Assembly (NCBI GenBank): GCA_032718475.1 | Contig: JAUCBJ010001928.1 | Coordinates: 1-64,000 of the forward strand | DNA length: 64,000 bases | Source: Nemertoderma westbladi | Taxonomy: Eukaryota; Animalia; Xenacoelomorpha | Reading direction: 5' to 3' | The notes under the pieces: model-generated | Databases searched by the model: none | Seen by the model: only the letters and a program-made list of their open reading frames with translations | What the model was told of the DNA's origin: nothing | Translations under genes and position numbers: made by a program | Shown: positions 1 through 33,814 of the stretch, piece after piece | Layout: the number at the start of each line of letters is the position of its first letter | Numbering within the stretch: position 1 is the first letter of the stretch

Positions 1-1
1 T

Positions 2-310
2 TTGCAAGCATTTGTGGATAGCTTAATACGCGGTGAAGCCGATCCAACCATTACGGAGGACGATGGTCGTTATATCGAACCGCCGATGTCCCAAGAGCAA
101 CTTGCGCGTGAATTGGACTATCGAAAATCCACCGCGCGCTATACGCATCGTAATAGTACGTATATGGACTTCCTAGCTACCGGCCATCCTATCGATTTAC
201 ATGATACGGACGATGTAGACACCGAAAGGGAAATGGTTCTATTTAAATATCATACCCAGCGGAGTCGGAACGATAAACCGAGAATAGATCACGAAAAATT
301 ACATTCGTAA
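2..310 (+). pseudogene. N-terminal fragment of the BEL accessory gene (ORF3), truncated by frameshift and deletion
   Basis: QAFVDSLIRGEADPTITEDDGRYIEPP... matches ORF 18786-17107. Confidence 0.9.
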
Positions 311-347
311 CAGACAGGGAAGACGAACCAATATGCCTAGAATCTGA

Positions 348-1397: not shown

Positions 1398-1474
1398 CTG
1401 TTTAGAGTATTTACGTATATTAGAAACTGTGATTTGTATATTTTATAGACTCAAATCCCATTTTCTGGGAGCGG

Positions 1475-2732
1475 TGTAAAAGCTTCTGTGGGATATAACT
1501 GGCCCCTTTGCTTCACAATCCAGTTTCCCCCCAGGTGCTGGAATACTCTAAAAAAGGTTCTCTAACTGTATATATATTCCCCTCGCCCGCAAGGTACCGT
1601 TACAGGTGTTTTAACGGACATAAAAGTCATTCTGCTATATACGTGTTTTAGCGGACATGGTAAGGCAAAAAACCCGCAATACGGCAAATACTTTTACACA
1701 GCTTAGCCGTGATGATTCAGATTACGACATCTAGCAGCTGGTTGCTTAAATGGAAACAGCCATTGGACGCATGGTTCTTTGTTTGGCTTCAGCCAATCAG
1801 AGCGATTCTCTCTGTCGATGTGGAGCTTTGAGCCGATCATACTGGGATTGTTCAGTCTTACAGTTTTTTACTGATACTTTGTTGTTATTGCTGTCTAAGC
1901 CAGAAACAACGGCTCTAGCAAGAAACATTAGTAGGCTTAAGATTATAGAGCGTATGACTGTTATCAGTTCGACGGTTCATAACAACTCACATATCGGTCC
2001 ATATCAGTGCATATCATATCTTAACCTACCGTCTTAATGTTTTTACTGTTGTCATATCTTATATCAGTGGATTGAATATTATTTGGAGAACATTTATAAA
2101 GAACCCAAATTTCCCAATTTTCTTGATACACTACAGGTTAGAGAGGCGGGTTATATATATAGCGATTGCGACTTATATTATTGTGGTGTGTATTGAATTT
2201 AATGCTATTTGATAAGCCCTACATGAGTCCGTTGCTATTCTCTTTATATATGATAAAATTCATTGACGGTCGGCAAATTAGTGAGCAGTATTGTGCGTTA
2301 CCGGTAGTGTGCATGATTGTGGCTGATAACTAAGCATTTCCTAAAGAATGCGCCTCATACGTGAATCATAAGCCTTACCGACTTACCGTTGTGATTAGTG
2401 TAAGTCATATCTCTGTCTATCTAGATAGAGCGCCACGTCCTAAAGGAACTGTTAATATTTCCCGAAAGTGAATAATATTAGTCAGAAATTATTTATTAAC
2501 GATCAATCGAATAATACAATACCGTAAGCTTCACTGCAATAATAATCTAAGCCCTCAGAATCCAGTCTCCCGGGATTATCCAGCGGGTGAATGGACGCGC
2601 ACTAGGCTGGCTTCTGCTAATGTTGTGTTTATTGGTATTAAATATTGTCATCTTCTAGAGTCGATTTATAAACCAAAAAGACATATAAATTTTGGCAGGT
2701 TAAACTGCTAAAGGTCTTCAAAAGCGCGTACA
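1475..2732 (+). repeat. 3' LTR of BEL copy 1 (1,258 bp)
   Basis: TG...CA termini; homologous to the reverse complement of 13233-14492 but clearly diverged. Confidence 0.93.
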
Positions 2733-13083: not shown

Positions 13084-13232
13084 ACAACATTTGTGTCTAC
13101 TGTTGACGGTGACACAGGACCATTTGAAGTGTTATGGGGCGTCCTCCAGGGAGACACACTTGCACCATTCTTGTTCATAATTGTTGTTGACTATGTTCTA
13201 CGCATGTCCTTAGATCATCATAATGATGATGG
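13084..13232 (+). mobile_element. RTE-like LINE, left half (split by the BEL insertion)
   Basis: VDGDTGPFEVLWGVLQGDTLAPFLFIIVVDYVLRMSLDHHNDDG rejoins in frame with VMITPP...DLDFADDL at 32253 once the element and one TSD are removed. Confidence 0.92.
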
Positions 13233-14492
13233 TGTACGCGCTTTTGAAGACCTTTAGCAGTTTAACCTGCCAAAATTTATATGTCTTTTGGTTTATAAAT
13301 GTACTTTAGAAGATGACAAATATTTAATACCAATAAACACAACATTAGCAGAAGCCAGCCTAGTGCGCGTCCATTCACCCGCTGGATATTCCCGGGAGAC
13401 TGGATTCTGAGGGCTTAGATTATTATTGCAGTGAAGCTTACTGTATTGTATTATTCGATTGATCGTTAATAATTAATTTCTGACTAATATTATTTACTTT
13501 CGGGAAATATTAACAGTTCCTTTAGGACGTGGCGCTCTATCTAAGTAAACAGAGATATGACTTATACTAATCACAACGGTAAGTCGGTAAGGCTTAAGAT
13601 TCACGTATGAGGCGCATTCTTTAGGAAATGCTTAGTTATCAATCACAATCATGCACACTACCGGTAACACACAATACTGCTCACTAATTTGCCGACCGTC
13701 AATGAATTTTATCATATATAAAGAAAACAGCAACGGACCAATGTAGTGCTTATCAAATAGCATTAAATTCACTACAAACCACAACAATATAAGTCGCAAT
13801 CGCTATATATAACCCGTCTCTCTAACCTGTAGTGTATCAAGAAAATTGGGAAATTTGGGTTCTTTATATATGTTCTCCAAATAATATTCAACCAAAACAC
13901 AACAGTAAATAGCAGTATAATAATGTATGTTGAACCGATAATGTAAGACTGAAGTGAGATAAGATATGTGAATTGTTAAGATAACAGTTATACGCTCTAT
14001 AATTTAAGCCTACTAATGTTTCTTCTAAAAGTATGAAACGAATTGACTCTAGAGCCGTTGTTCCTGGCCTAGACAGCAATAACAACAAAGTATCAAGAAA
14101 AAACAGTAAGACTGAACACTCTCCTTATGATCGACCGAAAAGCTACACGTCGACAGGAAAAATCGCTCTGATTGGCTCAAGCCAAACAAAGAACCATGCG
14201 TCCAATGGCTGTTTCCATGTCAGCAACCAGCTGTTAGATGTCGTAATATGAATCATCACGGCTAAGCTATGAAAGGTATTTGTCGCATTGCAGGTTTTTT
14301 GCCTTACCATGTCCGCTAAAACACGTATATAGCAGAATGACTTTTATGTCCGTTAAAACACCTGTAAAGGTACCTTGCGGGCGAGGGGAATATATATACA
14401 GTTAGAGGACCCCTTTTAGAGTATTCCAGCGCCTTGGGGGAAACTGGATTGCGAAGCAAAAGGGCCAGTTATATCCCACAGAAGCTTTTACA
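13233..14492 (-). repeat. 3' LTR
   Basis: Direct repeat of 30987-32246; one mismatch noticed by eye (14435 T vs 32189 G). Confidence 0.97.
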
Positions 14493-14500
14493 CCGCTCCC
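14493..14500 (-). promoter_or_regulatory. Polypurine tract GGGAGCGG abutting the 3' LTR
   Basis: Identical in copy 1 (1467-1474), directly before TGTA. Confidence 0.8.
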
Positions 14501-14570: not shown

Positions 14571-15572
14571 TTAGTCTTTCTTGCGCGGACGGCGTTTACG
14601 CAGTTTTTTAAAGCTAGCAAGAGTCCTTTTCTCTTTGGGGCGAGCCACTTTACAAGGAGGGCTATAACTCCTGGGTGAAGGGTGCAATATGATTGCATCA
14701 GAGGGTGTAGGATTATGGTCGGTGTATCCGCCAGTCGAAGTACCGGGTTGATTGACATCAACGTCAGGTGAGAGGGGTCTAACGGCTTTGAGAGCTCGTT
14801 TCAAGACAGCCGCTCTTACGGGTCCTTTACGAGTGGTCTGAACGAGGGCCGTGGGTGGACCATAGGCAGTTAGAAACTTCCGGGGTTTAATGGTCCTTTC
14901 CAACTCGCGTTCGTGGGCTCGGTATTCGTAAGGCCTTCGATGTACTTCCTGCAACTCGGGGTGTGAGTTAACAAACAAGTCTCCATAGTCCGGATCCTGA
15001 CGGATATAATTGATTAAGTTATAGGAATGAAGGTCGCTAGGATTAACACTCCTGAGAAATTTGCGTACGAATTTAGTTGAAATACATTCTCCGACGCGCT
15101 TCAGTAGCTCGTAACTCGATATGCGTGATTTCTGTTCAACAGAAGCGAATAGATAAGGATGGAACGCATAAACTCCTTCGTAAGCGCGTCCGGGATAATA
15201 ACGATGGCGCGAATCACAATGTAAATCAGCGTTCGCTTCCCAAGCTCTGATGTAACGTAGTGTGATCATTTCATCTACGCTTTCCAAATCGTGATTAAAA
15301 GGGCAATCGAAACTGGCGTGTCCCTTTAGTTGACAATGGTGACATTGAGTCATAAATTGAGGGCAAACCGCAAAAACGTGCAAATTATTAAATCTGCAAT
15401 ACGCGCAATAAATTTCCATCGCCGGTTGTTCGTGGAAATAGGAATAGCGGATGTTTGTGTCCATGGGCGTAACATGGTCTCTCGATGCGCATAACCGACA
15501 ACGTTGCCGAGAAACATAGTTGGCATGGCGATAATCGTACGCAGTGAGACACTGTGGGCGCCTTGATACCAT
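14571..15572 (-). CDS. Accessory gene segment C: CCHC zinc knuckles and basic C-terminal NLS
   Basis: CRLCASRDH, CAYCRFNNLHVFAVC, CHHCQLKGHASFDC (CX2CX4HX4C), KKLRKRRPRKKD; conserved in copy 1. Confidence 0.82.
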   Translation of the reverse strand: MVSRRPQCLTAYDYRHANYVSRQRCRLCASRDHVTPMDTNIRYSYFHEQPAMEIYCAYCRFNNLHVFAVCPQFMTQCHHCQLKGHASFDCPFNHDLESVDEMITLRYIRAWEANADLHCDSRHRYYPGRAYEGVYAFHPYLFASVEQKSRISSYELLKRVGECISTKFVRKFLRSVNPSDLHSYNLINYIRQDPDYGDLFVNSHPELQEVHRRPYEYRAHERELERTIKPRKFLTAYGPPTALVQTTRKGPVRAAVLKRALKAVRPLSPDVDVNQPGTSTGGYTDHNPTPSDAIILHPSPRSYSPPCKVARPKEKRTLASFKKLRKRRPRKKD

Positions 15573-17278
15573 TCTATGATGTAATCGTTATCACTGTTCC
15601 GGGGCGCGATAGGCTGAATCTCTTCAGATTCTAGACATATTGGTTCGTCTTCCAAGTGCATAGCTGAAGTGGGCGCGTCTGTCTCTTCAGGTGGACCTAT
15701 TGTCTGAATTTCCACGACAGAATAACCTGTGGGGATTCGAGGTCTTTGTATAACTGAGGAGTGCAAGTTCGATATACAAATCTCTTGGAAAATGGCGAAT
15801 CCAGCGCTATCCAACTTCTCTGCAGCTGAGTTTCTTAGGCTGAGTTTGGTCAAAGCGCGGTCTTTAAATTGGCTATCCACGTTGCGAAACGGGGTTAAAA
15901 ATCGCCGGAAACATTCGAAACGGATGAATTTATTATGTTCATCTAGCTTAGCGAGTTTGGTCCCAAGTATTAATGGATGGGTGCGTATAGTACGACTGCA
16001 CACATCGGCTAGCCAACCGGCAAGTGCGGTGTTTTCAAAGATCGTGTATATAGCTAAGGAGGGACGGAGTGGAACACTCATGAAGCTATACACGGCGCCA
16101 GGTGCGGTCAATGGTCCATCAAAGTATAATCGAGAATAATGGTCTCCGTATACCTGTTGATAGTTAATGGGATTTCCGACTTTGAAATTCCATCCGTATT
16201 CCTGAAAGGCAAGATGTCCGATGGAAGTTCGTTGCACCTTGGTAATGTTGCTAGACGTATTAGCATACATGGTGCGGAAGAAACCTCGACCTTCTGCCCA
16301 GGGAGCAATCAGCTGAGTATCAACGAAAGGGTATGGAATGTCCTCCATATTCCGAAAGTCGTTTTGGAGATCTCCATAAACAGCTGAGCCGATTTTAAGG
16401 ATTCTTTCGTTGAACAACATCTCGAGTACGGGCTGGGGTAACATCGATCCATCGATGCCCATGGCCGGTTTGCGTTCGGTGTCAATGACGTAACGCTGCG
16501 CGAGTTCGAATTGTCCATGTCGGAGATTCTTTTGTGTTTCGGTGAGAGTTTCAAAAGAATAATCAATCAACTCGGAACACGCTCGAGTAAACACGTGGGT
16601 AGAACCAGCTAATCCGCGGATGTGGATCATGTGCGTAGTTCCTAGCTCTCCGACCGGAACGCTACCTTCATTATCGTAGGTGACAACTCCATACATCTCA
16701 ATAACATTAAGAGTTTCATTCCACTCCTTGGTGGCATTCTCTAGGGTCATCCCTACTGGATGCCACAAGGTGGCGCATTGGTTAGCGTCAGGGAGATCAC
16801 TATACTTCATATGCCGAGTGGTATACGTCTCCACATTTCCATATCTTTGTATTTTCTCTTCTTCAAATAATACATCTAGATTCCAATGGACTAATCGAGT
16901 TTTAATAAATCCATCGAGGTTATAAGGAGGTTCTATATCTTTCTCGATTCGAGAAATGTTATATGGTTTTCTAAATGAGTTTACCTTTACTAACTGATCC
17001 AGATGTTTCTGCAATTGTTCGAGTTCGACAATGTCTAGAGGATTTATTAGTGGTAGAAACTTTAAATCATGTGTCGGGTCTTCTGGTTTTACCATATAAT
17101 ATTGAGTCAGATTAACGTAATAAGGGTGGTCTTTAATCCCGTAAAACGAGTTCTGTAAAGGTCTAGCGCGTATGTTGACATCGTGTACCATACGACGGAC
17201 AAGATCCGCTCGATTGTCCGGAGGTTCAACGAGTATACCGCCAACACGAGCGGCCTCGATCGGCGGACGCTGTAACAT
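15350..17278 (-). CDS. Accessory gene segment B: DEDDy (WRN/EXD/Mut-7/RNase D-like) 3'-5' exonuclease domain
   Basis: ExoI VVTYDNEG; LPQPVLEMLFNERILKIGSAVYGD (ExoII); FVDTQLIA; SIGHLA; ExoIII-like PLRPSLAIYTIFE. Confidence 0.72.
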   Translation of the reverse strand: MLQRPPIEAARVGGILVEPPDNRADLVRRMVHDVNIRARPLQNSFYGIKDHPYYVNLTQYYMVKPEDPTHDLKFLPLINPLDIVELEQLQKHLDQLVKVNSFRKPYNISRIEKDIEPPYNLDGFIKTRLVHWNLDVLFEEEKIQRYGNVETYTTRHMKYSDLPDANQCATLWHPVGMTLENATKEWNETLNVIEMYGVVTYDNEGSVPVGELGTTHMIHIRGLAGSTHVFTRACSELIDYSFETLTETQKNLRHGQFELAQRYVIDTERKPAMGIDGSMLPQPVLEMLFNERILKIGSAVYGDLQNDFRNMEDIPYPFVDTQLIAPWAEGRGFFRTMYANTSSNITKVQRTSIGHLAFQEYGWNFKVGNPINYQQVYGDHYSRLYFDGPLTAPGAVYSFMSVPLRPSLAIYTIFENTALAGWLADVCSRTIRTHPLILGTKLAKLDEHNKFIRFECFRRFLTPFRNVDSQFKDRALTKLSLRNSAAEKLDSAGFAIFQEICISNLHSSVIQRPRIPTGYSVVEIQTIGPPEETDAPTSAMHLEDEPICLESEEIQPIAPRNSDNDYIIEWYQGAHSVSLRTIIAMPTMFLGNVVGYAHRETMLRPWTQTSAIPISTNNRRWKFIARIADLIICTFLRFALNL

Positions 17279-18786
17279 AGGGGCGTCAGCGATAAGGTTT
17301 TTCGATCCTGTACTGATATCAACTGTGGAATCATAGAGGGATGACGAACGGTTTTAGAGTAGAGGTCCGTCATGAGGATTTGAGCTTCAGGTTGGGCTAA
17401 AGCGGCTTCTTCTCTTTCTTCCAGTTTCGTGTGTTTCTCTTCGATTAGATTTTCTTCCGCTTGTCTCTGTAAGCGTTCATCTAAAAATTCTTGTAGAGAA
17501 TACGTGCGTCCAAGCTCGATGTCTTTCTCGAGGTTTTGGATTTCTCTATCGAACTGTGGCAAGGCTAACTCCTTCACCGATTGGACTTGTTGTTGTAATT
17601 TACGTTTCTCTAAACAATCTTGTGTTCCCTTTCCGATTTTCTGTCGAATGGCGTCTAAAGCGTTTCTTATAACACTCTCCTCGACTTCCGTGGCGGGTTG
17701 TATCGGGTTTAATCCTGGACGATTGTAAGGATCAAAGGGCGATATTAGCTGCCCGCATCCCAATCCGGCTAAGTAGGATGGGCGGATGTCTAACGAACCC
17801 ACTACCGGAGCACCAACGATTAGTTGTTCGGGTAACACTAAGTCTTTGAACAGGGAATATAGTTCGGGAGGATCAGTGATACTGCTAGGATCAAGAGTTT
17901 GAGGTCTCACTAGGGAATGAGGAGGCCTGACCGAGTATTCCGGAACTCTGATCATGGGTTTATTCAGTGATCGTTTAAGACGAGCGATCGTGGGTGGTAC
18001 GTCGAACAGGTTTCGCTCGAAACTCCCGTAAGTATAACGCGTAAAACTATGTTTAGCGCAACGTCTCCGCGGATGTTTATGTCTTTCAATTTGTTGGTTG
18101 GGTCTAGGGCATTCGTCACAATAATACCAAAGACGCACGTCCTGTAGAGGAAAAGCGGGTGATCGTTCTCCAGTTTTGCAGTATTCTTCCATTTGTTCAA
18201 AACTATCCGGGATAACAGGTAGTGGACGATCGGCGGTAAGATACATCATAGTGAAATAGAGCCGTTTGAGTTCGACTACAGGGTCGTGATGGATACCTTG
18301 AGGATATCGAGTCTCTAAGTTCTGCTGACTAGCGACGTTGAGATAGGTTTCTCTCAAAAACTCTAAGTATTCGTTGAAGTCGATGCATTTATCCGGTTCT
18401 TCAACGTTTTCTCTTTCCAGTCTATTACGAATAGAATTTTCGTGATCTATTCTCGGTTTATCGTTACGACTCCGCTGGGTATGATATTTAAATAGAACCA
18501 TTTCCCTTTCTGTATCTACATCGTCTGTATCATGTAAATCGATAGGATGGCCGGTCGTTAGGAAGTCCATATACGTACCATTACGATTCGTATAGTGAGT
18601 GGTGAATTTTCGATAGTCCAATTCACGCGCAAGTTGCTCTTGGGACATCGGCGGTTCGATATAACGACCATCGTCCTCCGTAATGGTTGGATCGGCTTCA
18701 CCGCGTATTAAGCTATCCACAAATGCTTGTAAAGGTAGAGTATATCGCTCCCTAATACCAAGATCATCTTCTATCAACTCCGTCAT
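17107..18786 (-). CDS. Accessory gene segment A: Cys/His cluster, Pro-rich linker and coiled coil
   Basis: 559-aa ORF; YCDEC...HKH...CAKH; E/Q/K-rich helical end; no signal peptide or TM segment visible. Confidence 0.75.
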   Translation of the reverse strand: MTELIEDDLGIRERYTLPLQAFVDSLIRGEADPTITEDDGRYIEPPMSQEQLARELDYRKFTTHYTNRNGTYMDFLTTGHPIDLHDTDDVDTEREMVLFKYHTQRSRNDKPRIDHENSIRNRLERENVEEPDKCIDFNEYLEFLRETYLNVASQQNLETRYPQGIHHDPVVELKRLYFTMMYLTADRPLPVIPDSFEQMEEYCKTGERSPAFPLQDVRLWYYCDECPRPNQQIERHKHPRRRCAKHSFTRYTYGSFERNLFDVPPTIARLKRSLNKPMIRVPEYSVRPPHSLVRPQTLDPSSITDPPELYSLFKDLVLPEQLIVGAPVVGSLDIRPSYLAGLGCGQLISPFDPYNRPGLNPIQPATEVEESVIRNALDAIRQKIGKGTQDCLEKRKLQQQVQSVKELALPQFDREIQNLEKDIELGRTYSLQEFLDERLQRQAEENLIEEKHTKLEEREEAALAQPEAQILMTDLYSKTVRHPSMIPQLISVQDRKTLSLTPLCYSVRRSRPLVLAVYSLNLRTIERILSVVWYTMSTYALDLYRTRFTGLKTTLITLI

Positions 18787-19600
18787 ATTTGCTATCTGAG
18801 TTTATTAATATCAAATAAGTTTGTATTTAGGCGAGCGGGCGTCGCTGCCTACTTCTCTTTGCCCCCGGACAGTGGGATTCTCAGCGCCGATGTACCGTCG
18901 TCGCGGTGTTTACGCCAACATGTAGCAACAGCACGACAACGATAACCGGCACAAGTCACTCCACTGTCCGTCCCAAAGGCTTGGATCCACTAAGGTTCTT
19001 TCTATAGGAGAGTTGGGCTATTTTTACAATTGCGACTAGCTACTGTAAACATACTTTAGCAGTAACATTCACCTATAAACGCACAAATTCCACACAACTG
19101 TCAACAACTGCACACACACAGGCCATTTGTCCGTTAGTCAGTGCCTTCCAGAATGTCACTTTATTACTGTGTATCCTTGGATACTAACAGTGTGCTATGT
19201 ATTCTCTATGCTATGCAATGGGACAAGCTTTCTATTGTTCTTTTAACTTGCTTCTAATTCTAGCGTGGGTGTTGCTATGGTGACATTATGGAAAGCTAGC
19301 GGTAGAATTAGGGTAATTCTCATGCATATAGATCTGGGATGCTATTTAATAATAATTCTTTAATTGTCAATATCCTCTTTATGCATGATTTTATTAATTT
19401 TATCGGCTATTGACTATATGTTGGAGATTCTCGCACTCTAATACACTCAATAGGATGAATCTCCGCTCCCATGATCTATTAATTAATGGAATTTTGGGAA
19501 TGTTATAAATTGTACAAAATGACAATTTATGAAATTCATTTAAAAATATGAATTTAAATTTATTCCCGTGAATTTTATTATTTGATGTTAAAATTGACAC

Positions 19601-20413: not shown

Positions 20414-23413
20414 TCACGTTAGGGAGTCCCTAGATGTTTGAGGAATTAGGGAGGTAGTCGTAGGAAGAGTGTCTTGCCTTCCGTAGTTTCCAGAGAGTTC
20501 TCTGTCTCTTTCCAGTAAACATAAACGACCAACTGGGCGATTGAGTTGTTGCGTCTCAAAGATGATGCCTGGCTTCTTGAAGTTACGCCGCATGACGATG
20601 AGTTCTACCGAGCGTACTAAACCATCATCTGAGATGTGTGTCTCGATGATACGACCTGTCTGCCACCGTTTACGTGGGGGGTCTGGATCTACAATAAGCA
20701 CCATATCTCCGGCGCTGACGTTTTCTTGCTGCGCAAACCACTTAGTTCGAAGTTGTAGCGTGGGCAGATAATGTTTCTCAAAATGGTCAGCGAAACGACG
20801 GGATAGCAACTGCATAAGTTGCCAAGTTCGACGGCAGTATTCATCTCCGTCGGCAATCTCCGATCGTGGGAGCATGGCTACAGGTTTCTTCAGTAGGAAG
20901 TGCGCGGGTGTTAGCGCTTCCAGGGAATCGGGACTCGATGAGACTGGCATAAGCGGTCTCTCGTTGAGATAGGCAGCGATTTCCTCCATTAACGTCCGCA
21001 AAAGTTCGTCGGTGAGATACGCGCGGCATGGCACTATAAAGTGAAATGCGGTTTTGACACTTCGAATTAATCTCTCCCAACTTCCTCCCCACCAAGGGGC
21101 GTCGGCAGCGTTGAAGGTCCAGCTAGACGCTGTTATCCTTAGATGGTCGTCTACCTGTCTTTGGTTCCAGTCCTTCACGTAAGCCTGTATCTCGTTGTTG
21201 GCACCTATGAAGTTCGTTCCTTTATCCGATCTCATGGTATTACTCGTCCCGAAGCGAGCGATCTGTCGTCGTAAACTTAAGACGAAGCTGTTAGTAGATA
21301 GATCGTTCACCATATCGAGATGGATGGCTCTACAAGTCATGCACACGAAGATGACACACCATCTCTTGACTATAGTCCTTGCACGATATACTTCAATAGG
21401 GCCAAATAAATCTACACCAGTATTAGTAAAAGGTGGTTCATAGAAGCTTACTCGTTCCCTAGGTAATTCTGCCTCTCGCTGTGTTAAAGGCCTACTGAAT
21501 GCTTTCCTACAGGGTATGCAGTTCCTAAGAACTTGGTTCAGAGCTCTACGGGGTTTATCAAAATAATAGCGAGTTCGAATTTCGCTAAGAATTCGTTCTC
21601 TACCAGCATGATAAAGTTTACCGTGAACGTCTACAATCATCTTGATTTGTACTTCAAGATTTCTAATAAGTATGGGGAATTTGGTGTCAAAGGATAAGGG
21701 CGCGTTGGTGAGTCTTCCTCCAACACGTATTAACCCATCTATCATTGTGCTCGAGAATCGATCCCTTAAGCGCATCTGTGGATTTCTCAACAACAGGAAG
21801 TACTTTTCGGAATCCTCATAGCATTGCAGGAGTCTCAGTATCTGCTTATTTGTTTCTTCATACTCCTGGTGACTAATTTTCTCCTTTAGAAAACAATCAG
21901 ATATCTTATATTTGGGTAAATTCTTAATAACATGAACTTGTGCAGATGTCAATGGAGCGTGATCACTAGTGGTCTTCGTCCTGGAGTAGTGATGATGAAA
22001 ACATCGTCTTAAATATGTGACGGCTTTACAGAGCCGATTCCAGGAACTGTAATGATGCATTGCTCTCTGCAGCATGGGTGAGATTCCTTGCGAGACGTCT
22101 GGTATTCCAGATTTCCAATCTCTATCTCTAATTTCCACAACAGACTTATTTGTGTTGAGGGATTGTGGATCCGAAACATCATTCCCGGAAGTATGTAATA
22201 CAGATAGATCGATAGTCGGTTTAAATAACTTCGATTTACTCGCCCGGGTTTTAGGTTTGACTGTCTCCGCTCCCTTGGCTTGTCTAATCTCTGCCGTAGT
22301 AAGGTGAGGAGGCCATTCATCCTCTTCCTTGCTCAGGAAGTCGGGTCCATCCAACCAATCTGGAGTATCTATCAGTTCCTATGGAGTTGCTCCCCTGGAG
22401 GCGATATCGGCTGGATTAATCGTACCAGGGCAATGTCTCCATTGATCTATCTTTGTGCGACTAAGAATAATAGCTACTCGGTTAGTAACAAAAACGCTAA
22501 ACTGACAGACTTCATTGGTTAGATACTCTAACACGAGTAAAGCGTCGGTCCAATAAACCGTTTTCTCCAGTGGATAGTCGATTTATTCCGTTACGTTCCG
22601 GCCGATGGCTGTAGCGTATAAAGCCGCCTTTAACTCCGCTCGAGGAACCTTTAACTTGTTGTTAATCAATGCCTTAGAGGTAACCAAGGCGACCTTGATT
22701 CCATCCGGAGTTTCGACTCGCAGATATGCTACTATACCTATTCCCATGTCGCTGGCGTCTCCAAACACATGGAGTTGATAGGAATACGTAGGAAGAACAT
22801 GGCCAAAATATGCACGGGAAATTATAAAGTTCTCGATGGCAGGTAGAGAATCTTCCCATTTCATCCATTTCTTTAACAATTCCCCTTTAAGCGGATCGTC
22901 CCATGAGTGGTTTTCAAGCCACATTTGTTGTACTAAACTCCGAGCAATCAATATAACTGGGCTAATAAATCCCAATGGGTCGAAATAAGTGCTCAGGATA
23001 CTTAAACAAATCCGTTTGGTCCGAACTGGATTATCTCGCTGTTTTAACTGAAAAAACAGGATGTCTCTTTCAGTGTCCCACTTCAAGCCTAGCGTCTTGG
23101 TTTCAGGAAGATCGTCCTTTATTAAGTCTAGGTCTTTCGCTCCGCGATCTTCTACCGGTATGGCTTCCAGAAACTCACGGGAGTTGCTAGTGAATTTCGT
23201 CAGTCGAAATCCACCTCTTTTCAAACACTCTACCATTCCTTTCGCGACAGCTATGGCTTCTTCTACTGATGGAAGGGACCTTAAATTGTCGTCCATGTAT
23301 ATATTGCGTTTTATGTTGTCTATCACTTCTTTGGAGAAGGAGTCTCGGTTGTCATTCGCAGTGGTTCGCACCACGGAGCAGGCGTTGGAAGATCCCAAAA
23401 GATATGATCCCAA
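20414..23413 (-). pseudogene. pol: pol 3' part: RT (YMDD), RNase H, integrase; two in-frame stops
   Basis: NIYMDD, HVFGDASD, YWTDA, NPADIASRG, HGKLYH...CIPC, GVDLFGP, RSDKGTNF, GGSWERLI; TAA at 22583-22585 and TAG at 22379-22381. Confidence 0.93.
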
Positions 23414-26400
23414 AAGCCTGGATGGTCATCCAGTACTCTACCGGTTTCTGGTTGAGGTCTCCTTCAGGCCACCACAGAAATCTCAGGCTATCTCTATCTC
23501 TATCCAGCGCCTTGACTTGTAAGAACATTCCTTCTATATCAGAGGCGAACGCGATGGAATATTGTCTTAATCTTAATAGTATTCCCAACAAAGATTGGAG
23601 TAAGTTGGGTCCTGGTAACAACTCGGAATTGAGGGATTGACCCATATATAGAGCAGAGCCATCAAATACGACTCGTACTTCATGGGGTTTACTGGGTTTG
23701 GGAACGTAATGATGTGTTAAATAATACGTTCTCTCAGTCACTGGTGTTCCTTCCGGTACTCGCTCCGCGTATCCCTTTGTTATAAATTTCTTCAGCTGAA
23801 TTTGGTACATTTCTTTCGCTGAAGCATTAGCTGTAAGGCGTCGATATAATTGAGCGATTCTTTTCTCTGCCAAGGGTCTGTTATTTATAAATCTAGGTTC
23901 TCGTTTTCGAAATGGTAGGCCGATTTCATACCTACCTTGGTCCTTTAAAAAACGTGTAGTTGTTTCCTGGATTTGCTTGGCTCTTTCTTCTTCTATCGAT
24001 AGAGCCTTATCATATGAATTGGGCTCTACCAGTTCCTGAGTAAAGAATCGTACAGCTAGTTCGTCCCGAGTTCTAGCGTTGTAGCGCTCTATCTCATCGT
24101 TTAGTTCGTCATTGTAAGCGATGGGTTCCGATGGGTGAATCAGTTGACATAGGTTCACCTGACTTTTCCAAGTTTGGTTTTCTGTAAGTAGGTCGGTTGT
24201 GTTCTCTTCATCGAAGAGTTGGTAGATGTCGTCATTATCTGAGGAGTATGGTGTTCCCTCAGTTAGTTCGTCCACCTCACTGCTCTCCACTTCCCAATCG
24301 TGTACTTGGTATGTTTGTTCTTGTGGCATTCTCTCTTCGAGAGTCCTGCGGGAAGGGCCAGTAATGTACCAACCTACTCTAGTTCTTACCGCATAGGTTT
24401 GCAGTGGCTGCGGTTGAGCAGGCCGTTTCTCTAATGTTTCGAGCGCCTCATGCGCGTTCTGGCCGATGAGTATTTGCACTCCAGGATAATCTGTCTGGAA
24501 TCGAGGTATCTTAAGATGTTGGATGCTCTCATCCTCGTCCCAATTATAAAGGTCTGCTTGAGTAGTAGCGAAGTTCTTTATAGCCACCATTTTTACCGAC
24601 CTTATACCTTGTGCTCCTAACTTATCCTGGGGGGTGGACAACACACCTACATAGTAATCTGCCGTTAAGGTAGATTTCCAAACCTGCATAATTCCTGACA
24701 TATTCAATTTAGTCCGGAATTTGGGTTGTCCAGCAAAGATATCTTCGGCTAATTCTTGATCGATGAATGTTCCTGTGCTGCCGGAGTCAAGGAGGGCGTT
24801 CACTATGTAACTTTTGTTAAGACCGTGAACTCTTACCTGCACTACAGGAAATTCTCTGATTCCTACGTTGGAAGTTGGAGCTTTCCAAGATGGTTGTTTG
24901 GCAAAAGTAGTTGGGGGAAACTCATTGTTGGTGTCCTTTTCATAAGTAAGTGCTCGATACACTGCGGTATTGATTAGATAACAGGATTCGTTGGCGTCGG
25001 AGAATTCGTCAGTATAGAATCCTTCCATCTCAGACTCCTGATCAGTGTCATTTACATCACTGAATTGGACATGTAGTTCGGGCTCACTTACCTGACTCTG
25101 TTTGTCTCGTTCGAACTCACTGTGTAACATGATGTGATGTTTCGCGCCACACTTTGCACACTTTATATCGGAGTAACAGGTTCGCCGTTGGTGTCCTGGT
25201 CTGAGGCAATTATAGCATAACCGCTTGTCCCACACAACTGCACGTCTGTCTACAAGGGATTTCTTTAGAAATTCAGCACACGCACTCAAACGGTGGGTCC
25301 CGTCACACAGCGCACAGTTAGGTTTTATGTTACTCACTTTACCTTGGGTAACTTGATGCACTCTCGTTTTTTCTTCGGGTTTTCTTCGGTGCATTCTGTT
25401 AGGAGACTGAGGGGGGGTCTTGGCAACCTGTTCTCTCCTATCGTTGTTTCGAGCCTTATATTTACTTACCTCTTTTGGGGTTTTGTCAACGTAGTAAGAT
25501 CGGTCAGTGTCTTTCCCGCTGTCTTCTTCTTGAGAAACTTGGCTTTCGCCGTCGTCAGTGTAACACACCGGTGTTATTCTTCTCCTAGAAGCGGGTTTCT
25601 CACTTACCTTATTTTCCGATGTTTTCTCTCTGGACTGCTTGATGAGTTGTAGTTTTACCTCACCATCCAAGAAGGACATGAGATCAGCCATGGTAGGACT
25701 TCGTCGTTGTTGTTCATTCATGTACAACACTTTCTTGTCCCAGCGTGTACATACTCCACCCTTTGGTAAAGTAGAGACTACGGCTCCAATAACCATTGAA
25801 CTCTGATATTCATGAGACTTACCTAACCAGTCCAATTGTCTACAGATCTCTTGAATCTCATCGGAAAACTCTATAATCCCGCTACTAAGGAAGTGTCGGG
25901 GGGCTACTAATTTTGCATACAAATACTTAGCTATGTTATCCTTGTTACCATACCTGATGTTTAATGTATCCCATACTTGTCTTAATCCTTCTGGATGTCC
26001 AATAAACTTTAACGCCATTAACTTGGGAGGTCCTTCCAAGCACTTGATGAGGAACCTAAGTTTCTCTCCGTTAGATAGTACAGAGTTCTGTATGCTGTCT
26101 TTGTAATATTCGTTGAAAGGTAACCATTTCATCTCATCTCCATTGAATTTGACGATCTCTCCCACTTTGACCGCTTGGCGGGCTGCTGTTCCAGCCATCT
26201 GCCGCGTAAAGCTTTCTTGGGCCATCGTGTTATTTAATATCGAATTATCGGTATATAAATTTCTCGGATCAGTATCAGGTCTATAGGGAATATCATTAAT
26301 AACAGGTCTATAATCACCCTTAATAGGGTTTGCTATAGGAGTTTCTACTTCACTAGCAGTATAGATGCGTGTAGTCTCCACACCTTGCACATGTAATACT

Positions 26401-28472
26401 TCAGACCTAACAGGTTGACACAATGTTACAGGGGGTATTGGTATTCCCTTTTGGATATTCACTAATTTGTCGCGTTCTAGCGCGATACTTTGCTGCACTT
26501 CTTGCAATTCGGCCCTACTTTCCCTTACTGTTCCCTTAAGCTGGTGGACAGTCTCCTGCATCTGTCCGAGCAGGAGATTCATCCCCCGCCGTCCCTCCTC
26601 TACCCACTCGACCGCCGAAGCGGGAGTCGCCAACATAGTAGCGGGCTGACGCGGGACGACGGGAGACAAATCTTTGATTTCTCTCTCAGCTTCCAGGACA
26701 GGGATATTCTCATGGACTGTTCTACCGGGTACAGGCAGTGTAGTACTGTGTAAAGGGAATTTAGAGTGAAGCTCTGGAAGTACAGGGGTCTCTAACACAG
26801 AAGTGACTTTGGGAACGACAGGCCTAATTATTTCAGGCTCATCAACTATTGTAGGGAGTCTTTTGACCTGAACAGTTTGGTCTATGGGTTCCGTACTACC
26901 TAAGTCTGTGCTAGCTAGCTGTCTTTTAACAGCTGGGGGCAAATCAGGCAATTTGTGACGGTGAGATGTTTTTCTACGCCTGCTTAGACGAGATCTATTT
27001 CCTCCGCCTTCAGGATCGGTGGTTTCGCTTTCCTCCGATGATGTGTATCCCTGGCGTTTGGGAGTAGATCGTCTCATCATCTGCATTTGCCTAGCAGTTA
27101 ACTGTTTATTTATGTTGTCTTGCGTCTCTTGCAGATTTTCCAACTCCAGTTGGGTAGTCTGCTCAGACGCTCTCCGTTCTGCTTCTGCCACTGCCCTTTC
27201 CGCCTTTGCTTCTGCCGCCGCTGCCTTTCTTTCTGCTTCTACTTCTACCGCCACTGCTTTTCTTTCTGCTTCTGCTTCTGCCGTAGCCGCCGCCTTTTGT
27301 TCCTCTATCCGTCTTTTCTTTACCTTTTCTTCTTGGACTCTAGCGAGGCGGAGTTTTTCATCAAATTCTGCTTGGTTAGCAGCTAACATTTCAGCATCGA
27401 TTGAATCTAACACACGCTGGGTTCCTTCACTATTGGGGGAAAGTCCAGACAGCCGTCTCCTCAATTCTTCGTCTCCTAGGAATCGCTGATAGTCGGACAG
27501 ATAAATGTCTATGGCGTCTCTCGTTCGTGGTTTCTCTGAGGTCTCTTCGCCTTCCACTTGAGAAAGGGTGGCATCGGTTGGTTCTTCATAAGTTAGTCTC
27601 TCAGACAGCTGGGATTTCCACTGGTCTGTTTCTTGTACTTGGAGACCTACCCGCTGGAACCAAGTTTTGACAGCAACCTGCAGTGACGTGTCCTGTCTTC
27701 TTTTGGAAGTTTCCTCAAAAGCTGATAGGATTAGTCGAATGCGTAGGGTTCTTTCGCGTACTTGATATAGCAGTTCTTCCTGCTCTTGAGGTCCTTGGGG
27801 TTGTCGAAACAGTTGTTCTTCTAATTTCTCTAAGGAGCCGAAGAATCCCTGCACATATCCTGCTGCCGACCTCTTCCAAACAGCTGGATCCATCGTATCT
27901 TTAGCCACTCCCATCCTGTGTATATCTTCCCAAGTAGCCTCGGACAGATCTAACGGGAGTCCGGGTCCGGGAAAGTTCCATTGTGACTCGACAATAGACA
28001 TCAATTCTTCCCTGGCGTATCCCGCATAATTATCCTGGGTCACTCGCTTATTTCTCGCCCAATCTGCTTGATGTTCCTCCACCGCAATCAATATAGTTGT
28101 TAGCTCTGCGGCAGGAAGGGTGAGAAGGGGGTCCGAGTAGGCTTTAGCCGTCATCTGCAATCCGCGTTCGGGGGTCAGTTCGACAGTATCCGAACTACTG
28201 GAGCTATCTGATCGCTGGGAACAAGTTTCTTGACTAGGCTGTTGCTGCTGTGGGACAGCTGCTTCCTGGTTCCGTTTGACTTGGGCCCGAGTGCCGATGA
28301 TAGACCTACGGTGTTGGATTAGCTTAGGGTCTGATACTACTACTGGAGGGATGACCTTTCTTTCAGTAGGAGGTGAGCTGAACTCCTTTCTTAATCGCTC
28401 CACACTCCTATCTGTGTCACAGATGGTTGTATCGATTAGACTGTCTGACATGTTTTGCTGAGTGTCAGACAT
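23352..28472 (-). CDS. gag-pol: Gag-protease-RT N-terminal polyprotein (1706 aa), frameshifted within RT
   Basis: KFNGDEMKW capsid-like region; CALCDGTHRLSAC, CYNCLRPGHQRRTC, CAKCGAKHHIMLH; LLDSGS protease; RVVFDGS and SDIEGMFLQV RT motifs. Confidence 0.93.
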   Translation of the reverse strand: MSDTQQNMSDSLIDTTICDTDRSVERLRKEFSSPPTERKVIPPVVVSDPKLIQHRRSIIGTRAQVKRNQEAAVPQQQQPSQETCSQRSDSSSSSDTVELTPERGLQMTAKAYSDPLLTLPAAELTTILIAVEEHQADWARNKRVTQDNYAGYAREELMSIVESQWNFPGPGLPLDLSEATWEDIHRMGVAKDTMDPAVWKRSAAGYVQGFFGSLEKLEEQLFRQPQGPQEQEELLYQVRERTLRIRLILSAFEETSKRRQDTSLQVAVKTWFQRVGLQVQETDQWKSQLSERLTYEEPTDATLSQVEGEETSEKPRTRDAIDIYLSDYQRFLGDEELRRRLSGLSPNSEGTQRVLDSIDAEMLAANQAEFDEKLRLARVQEEKVKKRRIEEQKAAATAEAEAERKAVAVEVEAERKAAAAEAKAERAVAEAERRASEQTTQLELENLQETQDNINKQLTARQMQMMRRSTPKRQGYTSSEESETTDPEGGGNRSRLSRRRKTSHRHKLPDLPPAVKRQLASTDLGSTEPIDQTVQVKRLPTIVDEPEIIRPVVPKVTSVLETPVLPELHSKFPLHSTTLPVPGRTVHENIPVLEAEREIKDLSPVVPRQPATMLATPASAVEWVEEGRRGMNLLLGQMQETVHQLKGTVRESRAELQEVQQSIALERDKLVNIQKGIPIPPVTLCQPVRSEVLHVQGVETTRIYTASEVETPIANPIKGDYRPVINDIPYRPDTDPRNLYTDNSILNNTMAQESFTRQMAGTAARQAVKVGEIVKFNGDEMKWLPFNEYYKDSIQNSVLSNGEKLRFLIKCLEGPPKLMALKFIGHPEGLRQVWDTLNIRYGNKDNIAKYLYAKLVAPRHFLSSGIIEFSDEIQEICRQLDWLGKSHEYQSSMVIGAVVSTLPKGGVCTRWDKKVLYMNEQQRRSPTMADLMSFLDGEVKLQLIKQSREKTSENKVSEKPASRRRITPVCYTDDGESQVSQEEDSGKDTDRSYYVDKTPKEVSKYKARNNDRREQVAKTPPQSPNRMHRRKPEEKTRVHQVTQGKVSNIKPNCALCDGTHRLSACAEFLKKSLVDRRAVVWDKRLCYNCLRPGHQRRTCYSDIKCAKCGAKHHIMLHSEFERDKQSQVSEPELHVQFSDVNDTDQESEMEGFYTDEFSDANESCYLINTAVYRALTYEKDTNNEFPPTTFAKQPSWKAPTSNVGIREFPVVQVRVHGLNKSYIVNALLDSGSTGTFIDQELAEDIFAGQPKFRTKLNMSGIMQVWKSTLTADYYVGVLSTPQDKLGAQGIRSVKMVAIKNFATTQADLYNWDEDESIQHLKIPRFQTDYPGVQILIGQNAHEALETLEKRPAQPQPLQTYAVRTRVGWYITGPSRRTLEERMPQEQTYQVHDWEVESSEVDELTEGTPYSSDNDDIYQLFDEENTTDLLTENQTWKSQVNLCQLIHPSEPIAYNDELNDEIERYNARTRDELAVRFFTQELVEPNSYDKALSIEEERAKQIQETTTRFLKDQGRYEIGLPFRKREPRFINNRPLAEKRIAQLYRRLTANASAKEMYQIQLKKFITKGYAERVPEGTPVTERTYYLTHHYVPKPSKPHEVRVVFDGSALYMGQSLNSELLPGPNLLQSLLGILLRLRQYSIAFASDIEGMFLQVKALDRDRDSLRFLWWPEGDLNQKPVEYWMTIQAFGIISFGIFQRLLRGANHCE

Positions 28473-28549
28473 GTTTAGCTATACAGTTGAATGCTTACTG
28501 CTATAGTTACAGTTAAAGCAAGTCTAGTAATTCAGTATGACCGTTGGCC

Positions 28550-29799: not shown

Positions 29800-30625
29800 C
29801 AAACAAAATACAGACCAAATGCTGGCAGACTACCACCAAGCCTAAATAAACTACTGTATGTGCAGATTCCAAAACGGTTAGTTAGTATGCGTTCTAACAC
29901 GGTAGTACGACTTATTCTTTAAGAGGGGATTGACCTTACAGCTATGGCTGCCCCAACTTACTAACTGGCACTTTATCAGACAAACTCTACACAAGCAGCA
30001 ATCTCTTCAGACCTAATAATAGCTAGACAACAATCCAGCCTACAAAATATCTGAGTAATAACTATTACGGTACCTGAACACACACAAACAAACACAAGCC
30101 AAAACGCTGGCAGAATACTGTCAAGCCTAAATAAACTACAGTATGTGCAGATTCCAAAATTGTTAGTTAGTATGCGTTCTAACACGGTAGTACGACTTAT
30201 TCTTTAAGAGGGGATTGACCTTACAGCTATGGCTGCCCCAACTTACTAACTGGCACTTTATCAGACAAACTCTACACAAGCAGCAATCTCTTCAGACCTA
30301 ATAATAGCTAGACAACAATCCAGCCTACAAAATATCTGAGTAATAACTATTACGGTACCTGAACACACACAAACAAACACAAGCCAAAACGCTGGCAGAA
30401 TACTGTCAAGCCTAAATAAACTACAGTATGTGCAGATTCCAAAATTGTTAGTTAGTATGCGTTCTAACACGGTAGTACGACTTATTCTTTAAGAGGGGAT
30501 TGACCTTACAGCTATGGCTGCCCCAACTTACTAACTGGCACTCTATCGGACAAACTCTACACACGCCGTAATCTCTCCAAACCCAACAACAATCCGACAA
30601 CAGTCCGGCCTACAATTATCTGAAC
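29800..30625. repeat. 285-bp tandem repeat (~2.9 copies) in the BEL 5' leader
   Basis: Identical 69-aa ORF calls at 29976 and 30261 (offset 285); flanking partial copies are diverged. Confidence 0.92.
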
Positions 30626-30794
30626 AATCTGAGCAGACTTACACGTCTTCAGCTCAATATTAACTTACTAGGAAATAAAACTGACAGAAATAGACCTAAG
30701 TAAAATCCCAATAAAAACCAGGCGTCCCCGATTTAATATCGAGACCTACCGGTATACAATAATCAAATCGAATAATACTAATGTACTTATACTG

Positions 30795-30943
30795 GAAGTA
30801 CCGGTTAGGACAGTTGGGCCTACGGACCTACAGAAGTACCGGTTCTGGCAGTTGGACCTACGGACCTACAGCAGTACCGGTTCTGGCAGTTGGGCCTACT
30901 GACCTACAGAAGTACCGGTTCAGGTTTACCGGTTGACCGGTAC
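30795..30943. repeat. ~37-bp tandem repeat (AGTACCGGTTCTGGCAGTTGGGCCTACGGACCTACAG, 3-4 copies)
   Basis: Direct reading. Confidence 0.85.
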
Positions 30944-30975
30944 TTTCAACTTTATTGCTTACTGCAATAAAGTCA

Positions 30976-30986
30976 ATGACTGTTAT
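30976..30986 (-). promoter_or_regulatory. Non-tRNA primer-binding site ATAACAGTCAT (candidate self-priming site)
   Basis: Abuts the 5' LTR; no TGG; complementary to LTR 11-mer (10/11 at 31735-31745; 11/11 in sister LTR 1954-1964). Confidence 0.65.
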
Positions 30987-32246
30987 TGTACGCGCTTTTG
31001 AAGACCTTTAGCAGTTTAACCTGCCAAAATTTATATGTCTTTTGGTTTATAAATGTACTTTAGAAGATGACAAATATTTAATACCAATAAACACAACATT
31101 AGCAGAAGCCAGCCTAGTGCGCGTCCATTCACCCGCTGGATATTCCCGGGAGACTGGATTCTGAGGGCTTAGATTATTATTGCAGTGAAGCTTACTGTAT
31201 TGTATTATTCGATTGATCGTTAATAATTAATTTCTGACTAATATTATTTACTTTCGGGAAATATTAACAGTTCCTTTAGGACGTGGCGCTCTATCTAAGT
31301 AAACAGAGATATGACTTATACTAATCACAACGGTAAGTCGGTAAGGCTTAAGATTCACGTATGAGGCGCATTCTTTAGGAAATGCTTAGTTATCAATCAC
31401 AATCATGCACACTACCGGTAACACACAATACTGCTCACTAATTTGCCGACCGTCAATGAATTTTATCATATATAAAGAAAACAGCAACGGACCAATGTAG
31501 TGCTTATCAAATAGCATTAAATTCACTACAAACCACAACAATATAAGTCGCAATCGCTATATATAACCCGTCTCTCTAACCTGTAGTGTATCAAGAAAAT
31601 TGGGAAATTTGGGTTCTTTATATATGTTCTCCAAATAATATTCAACCAAAACACAACAGTAAATAGCAGTATAATAATGTATGTTGAACCGATAATGTAA
31701 GACTGAAGTGAGATAAGATATGTGAATTGTTAAGATAACAGTTATACGCTCTATAATTTAAGCCTACTAATGTTTCTTCTAAAAGTATGAAACGAATTGA
31801 CTCTAGAGCCGTTGTTCCTGGCCTAGACAGCAATAACAACAAAGTATCAAGAAAAAACAGTAAGACTGAACACTCTCCTTATGATCGACCGAAAAGCTAC
31901 ACGTCGACAGGAAAAATCGCTCTGATTGGCTCAAGCCAAACAAAGAACCATGCGTCCAATGGCTGTTTCCATGTCAGCAACCAGCTGTTAGATGTCGTAA
32001 TATGAATCATCACGGCTAAGCTATGAAAGGTATTTGTCGCATTGCAGGTTTTTTGCCTTACCATGTCCGCTAAAACACGTATATAGCAGAATGACTTTTA
32101 TGTCCGTTAAAACACCTGTAAAGGTACCTTGCGGGCGAGGGGAATATATATACAGTTAGAGGACCCCTTTTAGAGTATTCCAGCGCCTGGGGGGAAACTG
32201 GATTGCGAAGCAAAAGGGCCAGTTATATCCCACAGAAGCTTTTACA
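30987..32246 (-). repeat. 5' LTR
   Basis: Direct repeat of 13233-14492; contains two CCAAT-type boxes (~31923-31962) upstream of the putative transcript start. Confidence 0.97.
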
Positions 32247-32251
32247 GATGG

Positions 32252-33150
32252 GGTGATGATAACTCCACCTACTGGCTCCAGAAGTCGAGGAAATCCTGCC
32301 AAGTACCTAACTGATCTAGACTTTGCTGATGACTTAGGAGTACTCTCAGAATCACTAGAGGGAGCCCAACGGCTCCTCAGCTCATTAGAACATGCTGCTT
32401 CTAGTGTTGGTCTTTTTATTAACTCCAGAAAGACCAAAATTTTGACAGTTAACTTTGAAAGTCCTCAGCAAGTCTCTGATCGGATGAGCATAAGCTCAAA
32501 AGATGGTATGCTTGAGCACGTGGATGACTTCTGTTACCTGGGATCATGGATCCGGAAGTCAGGTGAGGACCTTCGAATACGTAAGGGAAAGGCATGGGCA
32601 GCCTTGAATAGGCTTTCCAGGATTTGGAAGTCACCGAGAATTAATCGGAAACTTAAGGTCCAGTTATTTAGAGCAGCAGTAGTTCCAGTACTCCTCTATG
32701 GGAGTCCATGCTGGGCTCTAACTGCTGTGGACACCAAATCTCTGGATGGCACATTCACAAGAATGCTACGCCGGGTTCATTGTGTCAAGTTCAATGCACA
32801 CATCTCCAACCAGACACTATATAACATTGGAGGTGTCTCATTGGTTCCCCCAAGCTTGACACTAGAACAAAATCGCCTCCGCTTTTCAGGACATTGCTTT
32901 CGCCGTGAGGACCAGCCAGTGCATAATCTTGTACTTTGGCAGCCTCATGGAGTGAATAAGCATGGTGGACAGCCCATGACTTTCTTGAGACGCATCTTAA
33001 AGGACATTGGCCTTGAAGATGCGGATGATCTAGCAAATGTCATGGGTGATAGGGAGTTGTGGCGGTGCAATTTTGTCGATAAGCCGGCACAGCATTCTTA
33101 AAAATGCAGCTGCAATGCAGCATGCCGATCCTAGTAGTAGTAGTAGTAGT
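32252..33150 (+). mobile_element. RTE-like LINE, right half with (TAG)n tail
   Basis: DLDFADDL, FCYLGS, PVLLYG, RLRFSGHC; stop at 33101; TAGTAGTAG... tail 33132-33150. Confidence 0.92.
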
Positions 33151-33814
33151 CCTGCACGTGTCCACGTGTTAGTGTAGCAGTAGCTGATGCGCCAAATCCC
33201 AGCGAAACACATGAAAATGTAACCAATGTGATAATTTTACTTACAGTATTTAAATAGGGTTGCACTTCATGTCCCTGCTTAAATAAAATTATGACTACTT
33301 ACGGTTGAACAGATATGAACATGTTGTTTCTCTGTTTCCAATTAATTTTACTTGCTTGATATTGGTCTGCCAAAAATATATTTCGTTCAACCCAAGATTA
33401 TATAGTTAATATTCTGTATGACATTGGTAGATAGTGGATTTATCTAAGTTGATCTGTGGTATGTCAATATGAATATGTTATTAGTGCAGTTGTTAAATAA
33501 CAAATGTTAGCAACTAAGAAAACACTTATTTGTTTGTAAAGTAACATGCTATTCCTGGACTGGAAAGTATGTGCATTAAACAACCACAAACATAAAGAGC
33601 ATTCATTATATTACAGTACAACAAGCAAAGGTCAAATAGTTAGGCATTCCCCTAGATTTACAGGAAATCTCAACATTATCTAAAGTTTAACAATTAATAA
33701 GTTTTTCTTTTATGTTTATTTAGTTTAAAGGAAACACAAGCTTTATAGCATTAAATCCATAGAAAATAATAAGCAATTCTTGTCAAGTAGTAGAGTTTAC
33801 ATTTATGTTCCAAC

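Follow-up and report, generated by a model that had tools for sequence, protein, structure and literature searches.

A BEL/Pao insertion of 19,014 bp on the minus strand of the window (the whole 64,000-nt stretch of DNA analysed here) raises the question of how an element without a tRNA-type primer-binding site starts reverse transcription. The initial annotation described the end of its 5' LTR (...GTACA) as followed without a spacer by a sequence other than TGG, and indeed the LTR runs directly into ATAACAGTCAT at 30986–30976. The CCA of the mature tRNA 3' end pairs with TGG. Here TGG is absent from the first 266 nt past the 5' LTR and is first encountered at leader position 267; therefore, the mature tRNA 3' end cannot bind at 30976–30986.

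The assignment of the element is clear from its anatomy (Table 1). Two TG...CA LTRs, a target duplication and a polypurine tract, all features of BEL/Pao membership, are present, and the domain order DUF1759, Peptidase_A17, Integrase_H2C2, DUF5641 corresponds to the Gag-PR-RT-RH-IN arrangement of the BEL/Pao (Belpaoviridae) type. The best protein relatives, 30–44% identical, carry the same families. With domains and relatives of BEL/Pao and no Ty3/gypsy chromovirus ancestry, the element stands outside the Tf1/sushi group. In the window self-comparison the LTRs differ at 1 of 1260 bases, and with near-identical LTRs and a 5-bp target duplication this is a young insertion. The pol region is broken and spread over three frames; therefore this copy was likely mobilised by the proteins of another copy. 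The leader between the 5' LTR and gag-pol is 2.5 kb long and holds tandem repeats.

Table 1. Coordinates, in the window, of features of the 19-kb element and of the LTR of its sister copy.
Feature	Position	Strand	Remarks
5' LTR	30987..32246 (32246-30987 in element sense)	(-)	1260 bp, TG...CA; end reads ...GCGTACA
3' LTR	13233..14492	(-)	1260 bp, TG...CA; one base different from 5' LTR
Target-site duplication CCATC	32247..32251 (left copy), 13228-13232 (right copy)	(-)	
Two CCAAT boxes (LTR 287, reversed, and LTR 318) and initiator-like TCAGTC (LTR 378)	31864..31960	(-)	
Candidate self-primer in 5' LTR (LTR position 502-512)	31735..31745	(-)	10/11 complementary to ATAACAGTCAT; then C
Identical candidate 11-mer in 3' LTR	13981..13991	(-)	10/11 complementary to ATAACAGTCAT
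Candidate poly(A) signal	31077..31082	(-)	only A(A/T)TAAA hexamer in LTR, putative function; downstream of candidate primer
U5 hairpin near LTR 3' end	31006..31029	(-)	9 pairs
Primer-binding position ATAACAGTCAT	30976..30986	(-)	adjoins 5' LTR, zero spacer, no TGG
Leader hairpin	30949..30973	(-)	10 perfect pairs, 13 as folded RNA; directly after primer site, leaves site free
Leader tandem repeats	29817..30921	(-)	38 bp x 3.3 at 30795-30921; 285 bp x 2.8 at 29817-30623
Frame with gag, protease and first part of RT	23352..28478	(-)	DUF1759; Cys-His knuckles, protease motif by eye
Rest of RT and RNase H region, different frame	22583..23425	(-)	Peptidase_A17, E 2.6e-33
Integrase frame	20414..22378	(-)	Integrase_H2C2, DUF5641
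Three overlapping extra frames, pol to 3' LTR	14571..18801	(-)	middle one 15350-17353; lead only
Polypurine-tract-like GGGAGCGG	14493..14500	(-)	precedes 3' LTR
Sister element 3' LTR	1475..2732	(+)	~89% identical by BLAST
Homologous 11-mer in sister 3' LTR (LTR position 480-490)	1954..1964	(+)	11/11 complementary to ATAACAGTCAT; then C

The extra coding region of about 4.2 kb (14571–18801, minus strand) lengthens the element to 19 kb, about twice the ICTV range. One of its frames has a weak zinc-knuckle match (E 0.03), while no Pfam family is found in the extra frames at E 0.001 and no solved structure in PDB matches the middle one (15350–17353, minus strand). Residues 170–480 of this middle frame resemble 3'-5' exonucleases (ESM Atlas 0.92; 153 of 256 features common; PF01612 on 38% of the top cluster). 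DEDDy exonuclease frames occur in bdelloid LTR elements, according to an excerpt of PMC5408684, and one might guess that the exonuclease-like frame trims the primer end. A weak reverse-transcriptase fragment (RVT_1, E 1.8e-5; DUF6451) adjoins the 5' LTR at 32160–33101 on the plus strand; an older retroelement may have been the target of the 19-kb insertion. Elsewhere in the window, an uninterrupted Aa_trans amino-acid transporter frame of 479 residues is located at 33794–35233 (plus strand, E 1e-62), with no database match at E 1e-60, and a tandem array of about 135 copies of a 21-bp unit, open in several frames, at 3475–6305. The sister copy at 1–2732 (plus strand) is internally deleted, with 1–323 corresponding to 18733–18412 and 318–2732 to 15653–13233.

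The initial annotation had also reported an exact complement of the primer-binding position in the sister LTR and a 10/11 version at the homologous sites of both LTRs of this element, downstream of two CCAAT boxes, all of which are present (Table 1). The own-LTR pairing with ATAACAGTCAT comprises 8 pairs, one A·C mismatch and 2 pairs; the sister 11-mer, placed by LTR alignment at the site homologous to own 502–512, differs from it at one base, precisely that completing the pairing. As the 5' end and primer site of the sister element fall beyond the window, the 11/11 match is one between two different elements. Dinucleotide shuffling of the sister LTR, repeated 3000 times, never yields the exact 11-mer; this perfect pairing exists only across two elements, however, and when the own LTR is shuffled as often, 72 of the 3000 sequences contain a complement with at most one mismatch. 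With offsets 0–5 and splice junctions allowed, 8 contiguous pairs are reached in 23 of 200 own-LTR shuffles, and 11 in none of 200 sister shuffles. In terms of duplex energy, no 11-mer of the sister LTR pairs better than the one at this site (−12.4 kcal/mol), but in the own LTR the site is outside the best five, other sites pair equally well and ACTGTT is repeated several times. Taken alone, the complementarity in the window is modest evidence, its strength resting on the two-element comparison.

A splice-built primer was also considered for the 19-kb element and rejected, since no GT-AG junction in the own or sister LTR beats the contiguous site at offsets 0–5. A 23-base GT...AG stretch at 31779–31801 (minus strand), which precedes the candidate primer by about 33 bases, is missing from the same place in the sister LTR; it is short for an intron and possibly due to chance.

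Relatives were gathered by integrase alignment, yielding 80 metagenome loci and 14 loci in genome contigs. The latter (L081–L094) are BEL/Pao elements in contigs filed as prokaryote genomes, probably host DNA carried into prokaryote bins. At 30–45% protein identity to the 19-kb element, 29 of the 31 readable non-TGG relatives have a primer site that pairs with the own LTR over 11–15 bases, the letters differing each time, contiguously in 12 cases and across a GTRAG...YAG (GT-AG) junction in 17; the remaining two reach 10 (L001) and 9 bases (L015). None of the six TGG-type relatives has such a match, the longest pairing being 4–6 nt. Because of this difference, we consider it likely that the 19-kb BEL/Pao family self-primes its reverse transcription, and the sequence comparison strongly indicates self-priming in the wider non-TGG BEL/Pao group. 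Thus the initial proposal of self-priming in a BEL/Pao element remains the best reading, while its specific Tf1 form, with the first 11 nt of the RNA as the primer, is contradicted in the relatives.

These counts combine several sets. Where the LTR end is fixed by two LTR copies, all six non-TGG elements pair 11–15 bases with the own LTR, a length that in each case 0 or 1 of 200 shuffles attain; the two TGG-type elements pair 5. Thirty-one further regions were scanned with the LTR end left free after a CA and chosen by best match, and 19 of them gave 11–15 bases (0 of 40 shuffles in 15 regions, 1–4 of 40 in four). The ten regions in which the 5' part of the LTR could not be located (L004, L010, L014, L020, L021, L047, L053, L066, L074, L076; best 0–9 nt) were excluded from the counts, with the families of L047 and L076 resolved through other analysis; also excluded were loci of insufficient length or lacking a 5' end, and L026, a duplicate of L028. 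Four more 11-base matches come from L044, whose LTR end was placed by eye (1 of 200 shuffles), L085 (0 of 100), and L081 and L084, given without a null. TGG-type L086, L087, L091 and L093 show pairing of 4–6 only. Among the 30 non-TGG relatives compared, integrase identity exceeds 80% only for the pair L041/L061.

The primer-forming junctions are real, as the L041 5' copy and the L076 3' LTR lack exactly the intron. In L041, at least 83 nt of exon lie upstream of this junction. No TATA box is found 25–35 nt before the primer in any of 23 relatives or in the 19-kb element, the nearest being at −56 to −167 in 9 of the 23. As the primer of the relatives thus looks internal, a transcript start upstream of 31745 is compatible with self-priming. 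Such a start is possible about 125 nt upstream of the candidate primer, at the putative promoter stretch that holds the CCAAT boxes and TCAGTC, which we take to resemble an initiator motif.

Other features accompany the primer. It is followed by C in 19 of the 23 relatives and in both LTR types of the window, and A(A/T)TAAA lies downstream of it in 15 of the 23 and in the 19-kb element, while zero spacer is common to the latter, L009 and L079. The loop from the primer to the LTR end is 71–294 nt in the 23 relatives versus 748 nt in the 19-kb element. Fish, echinoderm, amphioxus and copepod proteins fall in the non-TGG group, which possibly corresponds to the Sailor/Suzu-type clades. In L086, a second pair of identical 193-bp repeats (844–1036, 13234–13426) encloses the TGG-type BEL element, and the repeat holds the complement of the 15 bases past its first copy (0 of 100 shuffles), making this another self-complementary LTR element.

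In RNA folding, the stretch 30930–31030 has a z of −3.4, and hairpins flank the primer site on both sides; the perfect 10-bp leader hairpin reported earlier is real. When the R-U5-leader RNA, whose folding the initial annotation had suggested, starts at 31745, the 8 terminal pairs form with a probability of about 0.65, but with three upstream 5' ends the pairing probability falls to 0.06–0.13. For this copy, the predicted folds mildly favour a Tf1-like start at 31745.

The family is abundant and diverse, with 10,229 contigs of run X1 aligned to the LTR. Contigs from two studies were aligned to 30930–31790, and among the 40 of 49 variant places listed none is inside either 11-mer. Flanking places vary: 30973, three bases outside, in 31–39% of depth, and 31733, two bases outside, in 58–75%; at LTR place 31227 the variant share in family contigs is 53%. 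Compensatory changes between the LTR 11-mer and the primer-binding site, which had been suggested as a check, are absent from the 40 of 49 places listed. The nine further places include two or three T>C changes, of the kind that the sister's letter would give, and the five G>A places of run X1 do not include a change at 30978 pairing with the own-LTR letter. Contig depth falls about tenfold over 31690–31734, just downstream of the primer, where the own and sister LTRs diverge most. The variation listed is compatible with a primer under constraint and, just behind it, a strand-transfer end that is free to vary. An exact 24-nt LTR pattern has no match in public genome or viral contigs, and no integrase relatives were found in viral contigs.

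The place of the element in the tree bears on the origin of this priming mode. In a quick tree of integrase only, the 19-kb element forms a long, uninformative branch, and in a tree of RT, RNase H and integrase it is sister to the self-type clade (SH-aLRT 92). A careful search on the same regions with more TGG rows (45 rows, 19 self-type, 5 TGG-type, no outgroup) places it outside a 98/93 self-type clade; a 99/92 branch sets both the element and this clade apart from all 5 TGG-type rows. By path length it is closest to TGG-type L070, and in AU tests topologies that unite the element with TGG-type groups are not rejected (p 0.48, 0.8, 0.8; in one test the unconstrained quick search had itself ended in a suboptimal tree). 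From these trees it is plausible that the element and a large BEL/Pao group inherited the mode in common, and the independent or acquired origin originally suggested for this lineage is judged less likely, the tree not being decisive.

Several other explanations have to be weighed. We consider it unlikely that the 11-mer match arose by chance in a long AT-rich LTR, in a divergent lineage that primes by another route, be it the leader hairpin, some other self-pairing or a protein primer. The one difference of the sister 11-mer exactly completes the pairing, the register, the length of 11 and the following C agree with the relatives, and no splice junction in either LTR provides a better partner. 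Speaking for chance are the shuffles that equal the own-LTR pairing (2.4–11.5%), the recurrence of ACTGTT in the LTR, a loop far longer than those of the relatives and a tree position that the AU tests do not settle. Hairpin sites instead of a PBS, proposed for fungal GalEa elements as cited in a passage of PMC6934838, provide a precedent for such another route.

Alternatively, the site could bind a fragment of a host tRNA, with the LTR match being chance or a by-product. Such a fragment could be the 5' half left by cleavage within the anticodon loop, the kind of primer known from copia-type half-tRNA priming. The complement of the site holds CTGTTA, which presumably resembles the anticodon loop of tRNA-Asn, but this likeness covers 6–7 bases. 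Such priming exists in Osser, Bryco and Bianca, and the imperfect own-LTR match would suit it; the same source, in the part available, describes half-tRNA primers for Ty1/copia only (PMC6317226). We regard this explanation as quite improbable: it does not account for the 11/11 match found at the homologous position of the sister LTR, and the sites of the relatives vary in sequence yet track their own LTRs. No tRNA gene is found in the 64,000-nt window, and Rfam over 30600–32300 yields no meaningful match (one row, E 2.8). Finally, the pairing could be real and selected but form a stem with a structural or regulatory role, as in packaging, dimerisation or the control of translation, while another RNA primes, or a normal TGG site could have been deleted here, which we hold to be very improbable. 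Complementarity by itself is no proof of priming, and long-range stems of R, U5 and leader are common in retroelements; in the non-TGG relatives, however, the pairing sits where the primer must bind, and it is absent from the TGG-type ones. A deletion, also raised at the outset, finds no trace: the LTR–leader junction is deeply covered by family contigs, with no deletion or joint among the rows listed.

Under the preferred reading, priming by the element's own transcript, the RNA would fold back so that LTR bases 502–512 (31745–31735) pair with 30986–30976 after the LTR. On the model of Tf1, the element's RT would use its RNase H to cut between 31735 and 31734, the freed 3' end of the primer would be extended through U5, and the strong-stop DNA would stop at the cut and jump to the 3' R region. 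The R region would span from the primer to a poly(A) site after 31077, and the primer stretch would be restored from the 3' LTR. The mismatch in the own LTR might be tolerated, or the defective copy might be primed by co-packaged sister-type RNA. Judging from the relatives, the 5' fragment that primes with its 3' end is probably longer than the first 11 nt. A broader scenario is tentative, and we put it somewhat short of an even chance: a large part of BEL/Pao would have swapped tRNA priming for a self-primer cut from inside the transcript, often splice-assembled, with the 19-kb family early-branching, intron-free and convergent on the Tf1 geometry, including the first five bases of the site.

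To our knowledge, proof of self-priming exists for Tf1 only; in gypsy and copia it has been predicted for a few lineages. If it is true for BEL/Pao, a third superfamily primes with its own RNA, and the mechanism arose repeatedly. This would account for BEL/Pao elements without a detectable primer site, which annotation based on tRNA would miss or down-rank, and host tRNA fragments would presumably lose a handle for blocking priming. By title or abstract start, no report of BEL/Pao self-priming was found in the open-licence literature; Repbase, GyDB and subscription papers may mention the pairing. Term look-up in PMC3118150 and PMC6238403 gave no mention of any primer site, and the passages obtained from PMC3601003, PMC5443660, PMC6934838 and PMC3286476 concern other elements.

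According to ICTV, Belpaoviridae are tRNA-primed, with an 18-nt site to which host tRNA-Arg or tRNA-Gly binds by its 3' end, and have genomes of 4.2–10 kb and LTRs of 0.2–1.2 kb, their replication being poorly understood (PMC8742986). The element agrees with this description in the Gag-PR-RT-RH-IN order, BEL/Pao domains, LTRs, polypurine tract and 5-bp duplication, and differs from it in having no tRNA-type site, a length of 19 kb, 1.26-kb LTRs and extra frames (PMC8742986). The tRNA site is not a general feature of BEL/Pao, being absent from the 19-kb element and 31 relatives.

In the excerpts of PMC6317226 and PMC4600332, Tf1/sushi and Tcn1 are described as self-priming, and TAR copia is predicted to be so. 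For the TAR lineage of Ty1/copia (Houba, Osr-1), the prediction rule given in the former is at least 10 bases complementary to the LTR, 0–5 bases after the LTR; the sister LTR conforms to this rule, and the own LTR only with one mismatch (PMC6317226, in part). TAR elements are plant copia, of an origin separate from that of the 19-kb BEL/Pao element. In Tf1, the PBS pairs with bases 1 to 11 and RNase H cleaves directly behind them, before base 12, as a section of PMC7175516 describes. The Tf1 site starts with ATAAC directly after the LTR, as given in part of PMC11042837, so that Tf1 and the 19-kb element both have no spacer and agree in the first five site bases; we take the agreement in these five bases as convergence or chance.

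The likely self-priming here would be a variant of a known mechanism, outside the Tf1/sushi group. Similar to Tf1/Tf2 of Schizosaccharomyces pombe, Tj1, and the Tf1/sushi and Tcn1 groups (Ty3/gypsy), the 19-kb element has no tRNA site, 11 post-LTR bases complementary to the LTR, and adjacent hairpins that may be comparable. Unlike these groups, it belongs to the BEL/Pao superfamily, has a 748-nt loop and one mismatch, and is known from sequence alone; moreover, the primer of its BEL/Pao relatives is internal or splice-built, unlike that of Tf1. From the non-TGG BEL/Pao group it differs in branching outside the supported clade, in the absence of an intron in the primer and in a far longer R-U5, while both have a self-complementary site, C after the primer and a similar polypurine tract (GGGAGCGG in the 19-kb element, GGGGCCGG in the non-TGG relatives).
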